Origin: a virus
Lineage: Duplodnaviria > Heunggongvirae > Uroviricota > Caudoviricetes
DNA length: 64,000 nt
Direction: 5' to 3' (one strand)
Virus record (IMG/VR): IMGVR_UViG_2718218452_000012
Position numbers: made by a program. How positions within the stretch are numbered: the first letter of the stretch is position 1; each line of letters begins with the position of its first letter. This document shows, piece after piece, positions 54,396 to 57,300 of this stretch.

Positions 54396-57300
54396 TGATC
54401 AGGATTGCGGCGCTACTCTCAATACTCTTAACTACCAGCGCCAATTCTGAATGCTGGATTGTCACAAACCTGCACGGGTACGGGGCAATGAATGGCGATC
54501 GTTACGAGTTTACAAAAGACAGCACGGAAGATTCCGTTTTCAACGTAACAATAAATGGCGATAAATCATCAGTTTATGAATCAGTTTCTGGCGTCTATCC
54601 AGAGATGAAATACACTGCTTTGTCATCGAACACTATGGTAGGAGAATACCAGTCTGGAGGAGGCATAACCGTTGAAACTTGGTCAATCACTACAGACAAA
54701 AAAGCTCTTTACTCCAAAGTAATGAACATCCCAGGTATGCAACAACTTACATCAACCAAATCCTTTGTTGGTGATGTAGTCGGAACCTGCAATCAGTAAT
54801 CCCCACCTCAATCTCGATAACAAAAAAACAAACTATTTTCCGTTTAAAAACAATGGAGTTTGTTTTTCACGCCCCTTTTTACAATATTTCTTGTTTACAA
54901 CATACAATCTTCCTTGTAATTTTAAGCCATCAGCAGGACGCACTGACCACCATTGAAGGTGAGGCTCTTAAAAATTAAGCCCTGAAGAAGGGCAGCATTC
55001 AAAGCAGAAGGCTTTGGTGTGTGTGATACGAAACGAAGCATTGGCCGGAAGTGCGAATCCGGATTAGCTGCCAATGTGCCATTGCGGGGTGTTTTCGTTC
55101 AGGACTACGACTCCCACACACAACCAAAGCTAACTGACAGGAGAATCCAGATGGATGCACAAACACGCCGCCGCGAACGTCGCGCAGAGAAACAGGCTCA
55201 ATGGAAAGCAGCAAATCCCCTGTTGGTTGGGGTAAGCGCTAAACCAGTTAACCGCCCTATTCTCTCGCTGAATCGCAAACCGAAATCACGAGTAGAAAGC
55301 GCACTGAATCCGATAGACCTTACGGTGCTGGCTGAATACCACGAACAGATTGAAAGCAACCTGCAACGTATTGAGCGCAAGAATCATCGAGTTTGGTATA
55401 GCAAGCCAGGTGAGTTCGGTATAACTTGTCAAGGAAGACAAAAGGTTAAAGGGGAATCCATTCCATTGGCATGAGGTACGTAATGAAGAAGATTGATTAC
55501 AAGTCCATACCAAAACCAATAGACTCAGCATCAGAGCGAAAAAAACACAAAAAAGAGGCTGAAAAATTAGCAAATTATATCAGTTTTATTAGAAACAATG
55601 CTCACGGCGATGGCGACAAGAAGTTGCTTTCAGATGCTCGGACCCAAGCGTTCGGTATACTTCGTAAGCAGATGCAATATCGTCTTCATCCTGGCTACAT
55701 AATTGAAATTCGCCCTACTGAAAGACAATTGTTCTTATTAAACTCTGTCTTTGACTTTGTAAACGTAGTTGGAGATCTTATCGACAGGTCTGTAGATAAG
55801 GATCCTGATACAAATAGTTTTCTTCTAACAAATAAAGAATACTTATATGGTAAATTCGGTATAAACGGATGGCAAAAATATGTACGCTTCTTACGTGCAT
55901 TCGTTGATGCGTATAAAAATTCCGACATGATTTATACATATTTGCCTGGTGGTGATAATTGTACGCTTTCGGCAGACAATAGAATATTCATACCTGTACT
56001 TGGTCTTGGGCTGATTAATGCAGTAAATGAAAAAGATGTTATAATTGTTAAGCAGTGGCGAAAATATGAGGGATATAGATATCTGCCATGCTTTGATATA
56101 TTAAAAATACAGAATAAATTCTATGTAAAAATTAAATATAAAGAAGATATTTTCTTCCTCAGAAAAAACATAGATCTTTTACAAGAACTTTCTGGTACAA
56201 TAGATGTCATCTTAGGTTCTAGGTTTATAAAAGAACTGAAAGAAAGCAGGTCTTTCTCTCGTGTAGAGATAAGCGAGTCAGAGTTATGGGGTATATCAAA
56301 TAATCCTGTAAACCACGCTCACCAACGAAACCCAAACAAAAAGTGGTCATAACCCGCTCAGGCGGATTTCATTTTCACGCAAACAACAGAATAAACACAG
56401 CGCTGTGTATTCATTCCAACGAGTGAATACACGGAGCAATGTCGCTCGTAACTAAACAGGAGCCGACTTGTTCTGATTATTGGAAATCTTCTTTGCCCTC
56501 CAAGATGAGGGCGATTTTTTATCTGTGAGGATATGAACAGATGTCAAACATCAAAAAATACATCATTGATTACGACTGGAAAGCATCAATAGAAATTGAA
56601 ATCGACCATGACGTAATGACAGAGGAAAAACTTCACCAGATTAATAATTTCTGGTCAGACTCTGAATACCGACTCAATAAACACGGCTCTGTATTAAATG
56701 CTGTATTAATCATGCTGGCGCAACATGCTCTGCTTATAGCAATTTCAAGCGACTTAAATGCATATGGTGTTGTGTGTGAGTTCGACTGGAATGATGGAAA
56801 TGGTCAGGAAGGATGGCCTCCAATGGATGGTAGTGAAGGAATAAGAATTACCGATATCGATACATCAGGAATATTTGATTCAGATGATATGACTATCAAG
56901 GCCGCCTGAGCGCGGCGTTACCGCATACCAATTACGCTTCACTCGAGGCGTTTTTCGTTATGTATAAATAAGGAGCACACCATGCAATATGCCATTGCAG
57001 GGTGGCCTGTTGCTGGCTGCCCTTCCGAATCTTTACTTGAACGAATCACCCGTAAATTACGTGACGGATGGAAACGCCTTATCGACATACTTAATCAGCC
57101 AGGAGTCCAAAAAAATGGATCAAACAATTATGGCTATCCAGACTAAATTCACTATCGCCACTTTTATTGGCGATGAAAAGATGTTTCGTGAGGCCGTCGA
57201 CGCTTATAAAAAATGGATATTAATACAGAAACTGAGATCAGGCAAAAGCATTCACTACCCCCCTTTCCTGTTTTCCTAATCAGCCTGGCATTTCGCGGGC

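Follow-up and report, generated by a model that had tools for sequence, protein, structure and literature searches.

A 289-residue protein with a Nun-type C-terminal tail, encoded after N in a 434-type lambdoid prophage, is a candidate long-form factor for RNA polymerase arrest

Among phage proteins that shut out a rival by jamming RNA polymerase, Nun is the textbook example, and it has been treated as a one-off, a small peptide built on an arginine-rich motif (ARM). Here we describe a gene whose product ends in the Nun peptide and is otherwise very different. It lies directly after N in a lambdoid prophage contained in a 64,000-nucleotide stretch of DNA (IMG/VR record IMGVR_UViG_2718218452_000012, Caudoviricetes; this whole stretch is called the window), and it encodes a protein of 289 residues. 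According to Kang et al. 2017 (PMC5386594), residues N97, H98 and H100 of HK022 Nun make contacts to RNA, template DNA and the beta' rudder, R102 pairs with the C-terminus, W108 occupies a pocket that includes beta' D329, and K106 and K107, which were picked for substitution, appear to make important contacts (their Figure 4D), while N103 makes no important contact. Upstream DNA is contacted by H93 and R94, and the H93A and R94A mutants still arrest in vitro (PMC5386594). The same 289-residue gene is present in phage 434 as CPT_434_48, which is labelled 'Nun C-terminal peptide-containing protein' in GenBank record OL657226 from a BLASTp result; it is not mentioned in the 434 genome paper (PMC9119081). 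The Nun tail is thus already flagged in the 434 record, and the gene is otherwise uncharacterised.

The last 14 residues of the window protein, VNHAHQRNPNKKWS, match the end of HK022 Nun at every position, and in a search against PDB sequences the sole significant match was the Nun chain 6alg_N, residues 83-109 (E 9.5e-4). In a PHROG scan the open reading frame (ORF) was assigned to phrog_12139, a family of unknown function, and its last 20 residues matched a Nun-like PHROG family; there was no match to the SieB or Ral families, and the ORF had no match in Pfam, NCBIfam or PADLOC. The tail was then compared across an alignment of six family members with 38-68% identity to the window protein. 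Residues V276, N277, H278, A279, H280, R282, K286, K287 and W288 were invariant in all six, and the tail positions that varied were the equivalents of Nun Q101, N103, P104 and N105. The contact residues of Nun, N97, H98, H100, R102, K106, K107 and W108, were all kept in the six aligned members. Invariant positions made up 9 of the 14 in the tail against 49 of the 275 elsewhere in the protein (Fisher p 2.6e-4), and a survey of IMG/VR added more Nun-tailed lineages, with identity down to 37%. Because the tail persists in divergent lineages, with substitutions at non-contact positions only, it is unlikely to stem from an accidental fusion; this pattern indicates a genuine Nun tail that is under selection. 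At the DNA level, identity to the HK022-type nun gene of phage O276 starts at the tail codons (~56307) and runs on through the downstream spacer, and as read from the sequence this is a mosaic joint inside a motif common to two alleles. A fragment of the gene occurs in E. coli BZL33_13755 (P0008), an annotated 96-residue ORF in which the first 23 residues of Bet are followed by residues 217-289 of the 289-residue protein, apparently a chimera that a deletion created in some prophage.

The position of the gene was also found to be that of nun. When IMG/VR was scanned with a degenerate DNA pattern for the Nun tail, the tail was found on two kinds of protein only, small ARM proteins of 88-117 residues (Nun-like) and the family of ~290 residues to which the window protein belongs. 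Small Nun-like proteins (88-103 residues, ARM plus tail) lie directly after N genes at 16 loci. Where both N-termini were readable (e.g. L072 and L128), the upstream N and the small Nun-like had different ARMs; at L119 and L129 two small Nun-likes stand in tandem, and one group of them has a lambda-N-like ARM (MDAQARRREKRKEKQ). The long proteins occupy the same places. Two loci, L003 and L042 (42% identity), have no N gene; there the homolog comes after a cI-like repressor, an HK022-type PL and a nearly identical putL, and this is the position of nun in HK022 and O276. In the window and at five other loci the homolog begins a few nucleotides after the N gene, and these upstream N genes are of four different ARM types. 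Since long and small Nun-tailed proteins both stand after N or putL, the position is a dedicated slot, with the 289-residue ORF as one of its alleles. The loci together suggest a general arrangement in which N is followed by genes for Nun-type proteins directed against rival phages. The idea that the upstream N at L006 is itself Nun-tailed was considered and rejected, as that N has no such tail. At L044 an unannotated gene of 384 residues (1608-2762) lies between the cI-like repressor and N, a typical moron position.

In the window, the leftward early operon of the prophage extends from ~53.4 to 59.1 kb on the plus strand, in the order 434-type cro (minus strand), 434 cI, hex, PL/oL, nutL, N, the 289-residue ORF, an ORF of 122 residues, cIII, kil, gam, bet and exo. 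The segment from 55000 to 57200 is 99.9% identical to phage 434 (OL657226), where the gene has the same context, cI434-hex-PL-nutL-N-gene-tL2a-ea10-cIII, and the prophage carries a PL operon of the phage 434 type. An earlier note, made from the sequence of the window, had described an interval flanked by lambda-type N and cIII that held a very AT-rich ORF beginning 8 nt after the N stop codon and an acidic ORF of 122 residues, and all of this was borne out, the flanking N being assigned by Pfam (N36). The stop codon of N is TGA at 55472-55474, the ATG of the 289-residue ORF is preceded by the Shine-Dalgarno sequence GAGGT at 55473-55477, and the GC content of the ORF is 34.6%, against 46.8% for the whole window. 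From 54928 to 55464 the DNA is 92% identical to lambda, the encoded N differs from lambda N by 8 amino acids only, and nutL is of the lambda type. Homology to lambda ends at 55464 and picks up again at 56381, from where it continues at 97.9% through ea10, cIII and further. In lambda the interval holds sieB, orf28, ral and ea10, three of which the earlier note had correctly named, with sieB on the opposite strand in the RefSeq annotation; in the window the sieB-orf28-ral segment is replaced by the 289-residue gene, and no blastn match to it was obtained within the N-ea10 interval. An intrinsic terminator, tL2a (56493-56514 plus a T-run), lies 3' of the gene, and a terminator likewise follows the homolog in L003, which places the gene in the first PL transcription unit together with N. 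The gene was found in 83 of 5426 complete E. coli genomes (~1.5%, at a coverage of at least 80%), lineages of Shiga toxin-producing E. coli included.

Structure prediction had been proposed in the earlier note as a check. With a 3-sequence alignment the AlphaFold2 model was unusable (predicted local distance difference test score, pLDDT, 45), and an alignment of 32 sequences was used instead, which gave a confidently folded core (pLDDT 83, predicted template modelling score 0.76); a Foldseek comparison of the model with the PDB and with the BFVD viral models returned no significant match. In the model, residues 16-64 form a helical hairpin and residues 71-77 a strand; a helical bundle spans 80-145 and a beta sheet with a single helix 152-218, and the long helix of residues 223-258 leads into a disordered tail (259-289), with pLDDT below 50 at 259-281. 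The hairpin opens with a basic helix rich in lysine and arginine (SERKKHKKEAEK), in place of which relatives have DSRRRK or TRRAARK. This helix is possibly ARM-like: alignments with the ARMs of Nun-like proteins in hhalign were collinear and not significant (P 0.008-0.06, probability below 5%).

The order of elements in the core matches that of TnpB, which we take to have a WED-REC-WED arrangement, the WED domain being split by a helical REC insertion. On the predicted model, the core appears to have a WED-REC fold like that of TnpB and Cas12, and this is a structural resemblance, not family membership. Alignment in hhalign with the N-terminal halves of seven real TnpB proteins was weak and collinear across the whole module (probability 11%, E 0.0027), which is one point of likeness to the RNA-guided nucleases TnpB and Cas12 and their nuclease-dead derivatives TldR and dCas12f-sigmaE. 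A profile search of the PDB (hmmsearch) with the family gave no TnpB match, and none of its 32 members had any Pfam match, OrfB_IS605 and RuvC included. The RuvC nuclease (D-E-D) and TNB/zinc-finger domains are absent, as the protein stops 70 residues after the WED-like sheet with the long helix and the disordered tail. In comparison with TnpB and Cas12, the 289-residue protein thus lacks RuvC, TNB, detectable sequence similarity, a transposase, insertion sequence (IS) ends and a candidate guide RNA, and it has instead a peptide tail as the presumed effector. Rfam gave no guide RNA match in the window region or at related loci, and no tnpA was found nearby.

More distant relatives of the core were found by a profile search of 1.8 billion representative proteins, which gave 25 matches. 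Beyond the Nun-tailed branch, these are proteins of 210-330 residues that end in a different, nearly invariant tail, GGLPSLGKRR. Their shared core motifs are L-P-x3-Q-x3-L-x2-L-F-x-G-P, F-L-L-x-N-K, C-S-I-S, L-G-L and R-Y-x3-F-S, they also have the motif S-x-x-Y-S-R-V-D-F, and the motif S-F-S-R-V-E-I-S-E-S is common to the 289-residue protein and the relatives with the GGLPSLGKRR tail. Comparison of the phage branch with one relative (P0033) in hhalign gave a probability of 96.7% (E 4.7e-10). Three relatives lie between brxC and pglX of a bacteriophage exclusion (BREX) operon (L007, L009/L158 and L011), with spacers of 24-35 bp. In the locus that was scanned with PADLOC, L009 (relative at 7001-7867), BrxA, BrxB, BrxC and PglX were assigned and the embedded relative itself was unmatched; the other two loci have the same gene order. 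No BREX genes lie near the ORF in the window. Another relative adjoins genes for ParB-N, NYN/OST-HTH, RelA-SpoT, PLD and MZB proteins, another is part of an integrase-flanked island of Janthinobacterium with CHAT, UvrD-type helicase and Abi_C genes (L159, 9001-9738), and one is in a small operon of unknown genes. A scan of a genome collection with the GGLPSLGKRR subgroup gave one locus only, in Dechloromonas. As a qualitative association, these contexts support a role in conflict systems. The BREX variant that contains the relative also has unknown genes of 376 and 423 residues, an HSP70-like gene and a second methyltransferase. An RNA-guided mode of action was considered for the family and is unlikely, given the lack of an Rfam match, the 24-35 bp spacers of the BREX loci and the fact that the DNA downstream of the phage gene is common to nun and lambda.

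Taken against HK022 Nun (6ALG), the 289-residue protein has the same C-terminal 14 residues, an acidic disordered linker before them and the same slot, after PL-putL in some phages and after N in others, and the two genes have their 3' ends and downstream DNA in common. It differs in its length, 289 residues against 109, with a folded core of ~200 residues inserted, whereas the Nun-likes are of ~90-115 residues and largely unstructured. It also lacks a demonstrable boxB-binding ARM, H93, R94 and the D-x-M-H-R-V segment, no promoter of its own was found in the scan, and it coexists with a lambda-type N and nutL. The most likely function, as yet unproven and judged from sequence comparison, is that of an immediate-early Nun-class factor for RNA polymerase arrest or exclusion. 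Our reading is that the gene encodes a long-form Nun-class factor that stops RNA polymerase and has a new targeting domain, and we give this reading a probability of roughly 45%.

The mechanism would be as follows, with expression timing, polymerase binding, arrest, target and phenotype being what we infer. The gene would be transcribed from PL with N as an immediate-early gene, as it begins 8 nt after N with its own Shine-Dalgarno sequence, with no terminator before it and tL2a after it. The disordered tail would insert in the elongation complex and wedge between the beta' rudder and lid and the RNA-DNA hybrid, as Nun does, so that translocation is blocked. The WED-REC-type module of ~200 residues and the basic helix may replace or supplement the boxB-binding ARM of Nun, and the module would pick the elongation complexes to be hit by way of a nucleic-acid feature or a factor. 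A lambda-type nut site could not be that target, because the phage itself uses lambda N and nutL, and for the same reason the target would not be one shared with Nun. The likely outcome would be that transcription stops on a competing phage (heterotypic exclusion), host DNA being the less likely place of arrest.

Several observations weigh against this reading. The D-x-M-H/F-R/K-V segment, which includes H93 and R94 and is kept by all small Nun-likes, is absent from the 289-residue protein, and the hhalign comparison with Nun-like ARMs did not demonstrate a bona fide ARM in its N-terminus. A consensus scan found no sigma-70-like promoter between the 3' end of N and the ORF or within the ORF, which is weak evidence; with no promoter found for expression in the lysogen, exclusion by a prophage in the manner of HK022 Nun is not assured. 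No PADLOC model was matched by the 289-residue ORF or by the ORF that follows it. The relatives in defence contexts end in a tail different from that of Nun, and others are solitary, one between housekeeping genes in Dechloromonas and another beside CheX. Finally, no discussion of the gene, of 'Nun-like' prophage proteins or of links between TnpB and BREX was found in the searchable literature.

The missing segment and the missing lysogenic promoter would also suit a functional tail with a regulatory or protective role, in which the protein acts as an anti-Nun factor, filling the cleft for Nun on the phage's own N-modified polymerase and so shielding it from resident Nun-type proteins, or else adjusts or closes down transcription of the host or of the PL operon at an early stage of infection. 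The tight coupling of the gene to N and its immediate-early co-transcription with N point the same way, and phages that depend on N are the natural victims of Nun-type proteins (PMC5386594). The family is, however, also found in the nun slot of put-type phages that have neither N nor nut, the gene's presence in only 83 of the 5426 E. coli genomes argues against a general cofactor of N, and since H93A and R94A Nun still arrests in vitro (PMC5386594), the lack of these residues need not mean that arrest is lost. We regard a role of this kind as improbable, though it deserves some weight.

In the earlier note the early, PL-proximal location was taken as one often used for anti-restriction or superinfection exclusion. 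For the 289-residue ORF this idea gained from the nun slot, the Nun tail, the relatives in BREX and other defence islands and the replacement of ral and sieB, and lost from the fact that PADLOC matched neither of the two genes of the interval. The anti-restriction half of it would make the protein an anti-defence factor in the ral slot, directed at a restriction-like system such as BREX, whose embedded relative, or the partner of that relative, it might for example mimic or titrate. An anti-restriction gene, ral, is indeed replaced at this very position, the position suits early expression, and the core has a homolog in the conserved gene that lies between brxC and pglX. The protein and its BREX relatives nevertheless share only ~17-20% identity, and their C-terminal tails are wholly different; the conserved polymerase-arrest tail would be left unexplained; and the BREX variant was seen in metagenomic contigs and not in E. 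coli, the relatives from named genomes being betaproteobacterial and either solitary or in other islands. We therefore think an anti-defence role quite unlikely. It is likewise quite unlikely that the tail is a functionless by-product of recombination, in which an AT-rich moron with an unrelated job was joined to the 3' end of nun. In favour of this are the mosaic joint, with DNA identity to HK022-type nun from exactly the tail codons onward, and the AT-rich, foreign-looking body. Against it, the tail is kept with non-contact substitutions only in at least five lineages at 37-47% identity, some of them with DNA not identical to that of nun, and a joint inside a conserved motif is what homologous recombination between two functional alleles is expected to leave.

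The second ORF of the interval is ordinary lambda ea10, a known lambda accessory gene, as judged by sequence identity and position. The earlier note had counted two uncharacterised genes here and could assign neither to a family, and this did not hold: the 122-residue ORF is identical to lambda Ea10, with no difference, matches DUF2528 (PF10800; E 1.8e-47, 160 bits against a cut-off of 22) and stands upstream of cIII as in lambda, and the 289-residue ORF is phrog_12139 and 434 CPT_434_48. The role of Ea10 in lambda has been described as not fully understood (bioRxiv 10.1101/2024.10.31.621285). The 188-bp spacer between the two ORFs is common to lambda and HK022 and contains a homolog of the small RNA PreS/LPR1, which differs from the lambda ral-ea10 intergenic region in 3 bases of the terminator loop only. 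PreS/LPR1 is an Hfq-dependent lambda small RNA that up-regulates host dnaN (bioRxiv 10.1101/2024.10.31.621285). The terminator at its end, tL2a, is annotated in phage O276, and the 434 record has a terminator at the same position. Neither the small RNA homolog nor tL2a (~56433-56520) had been noticed in the earlier note, which had also overlooked the Nun-type C-terminus of the 289-residue ORF. The features discussed are collected in Table 1.

Table 1. Features of the N-ea10 interval and of the 289-residue protein, in window positions
Feature	Position	Strand	Basis or remarks
Antiterminator gene N, lambda-type	55151..55474	+	Pfam N36, E 1.8e-26; annotated antiterminator in phage 434
289-residue ORF (289 codons plus stop), same gene as phage 434 CPT_434_48	55483..56352	+	ORF list; phrog_12139, E 7.6e-206; 99.7% amino acid identity
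N-terminal helical hairpin, residues 15-64	55525..55674	+	AlphaFold2 helices 16-38 and 43-64; phage (Nun-tailed) branch only
Core domain, residues 71-218 (strand, helical insertion, beta sheet)	55693..56136	+	WED-REC-WED-like topology in the predicted model, no RuvC after
Long helix, residues 223-258, with S-F-S-R-V-E-I-S-E-S motif and disordered acidic linker	56149..56307	+	AlphaFold2 secondary structure
Nun-type tail, residues 276-289	56308..56349	+	Alignment; HK022 Nun residues 96-109, 14/14
PreS/LPR1 small RNA homolog, ending at tL2a (stem 56493-56514, then T-run)	56433..56520 (5' end approximate)	+	Terminator scan; lambda comparison
ea10, 122 residues, acidic	56541..56909	+	122/122 identical to lambda Ea10 NP_040621; Pfam DUF2528; phrog_646

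Other features of the operon were recorded in passing. Upstream of N, the 434 hex gene (54395-54799; longest ORF 54323-54799; phrog_2651) overlaps the end of cI and has no match in Pfam, NCBIfam or PADLOC; Hex is a repressor-protection protein (PMID 23303392, as cited in the 434 annotation). The lambda cIII thermoregulator RNA element (Rfam RF01804, 88.5 bits) is located at 56969-57027, overlapping the start of cIII. An IS3-family element (IS1203/IS629-like, ~52080-53390), with orfA at 52139-52465, orfB at 52465-53352 and an ALIL pseudoknot at 52420-52536, lies in the nutR/tR1 region, where it stands between the 434-type cro and cII; E. coli strains C7 and C3 (cow) have the identical insertion. 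This insertion should separate cII-O-P-Q from PR transcription, and the prophage may be defective.

The Nun tail is a portable module, carried by many small ARM proteins after N and by a family of ~290 residues with a putative targeting domain of TnpB-like fold, and this offers a testable route to new specificities of exclusion at the level of transcription. With the gene available in a classical phage, 434, and in ~1.5% of the complete genomes of E. coli, its genetics and biochemistry are feasible, with Nun-resistant rpoC alleles and in-vitro arrest assays. A report on exapted TnpB derivatives describes these as acting on transcription (PMC10691335), and TnpB exaptation, BREX accessory genes and the control of RNA polymerase may be connected; ties of the family to proteins embedded in BREX operons and to the fold of TnpB would come as a surprise if they were confirmed. 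We put forward, tentatively, that the phage and bacterial proteins may form an unrecognised family, in which a RuvC-less WED-REC module derived from TnpB/Cas12 bears interchangeable C-terminal effector tails, the phage branch having the Nun peptide in the nun slot and the bacterial branch having GGLPSLGKRR, between brxC and pglX or in other defence islands. Were this so, a transposon-derived recognition module would have been exapted once again, without a nuclease and probably without a guide, to deliver a peptide that jams the polymerase, and it would act on selected transcription complexes in conflicts of phages with one another or with the host.

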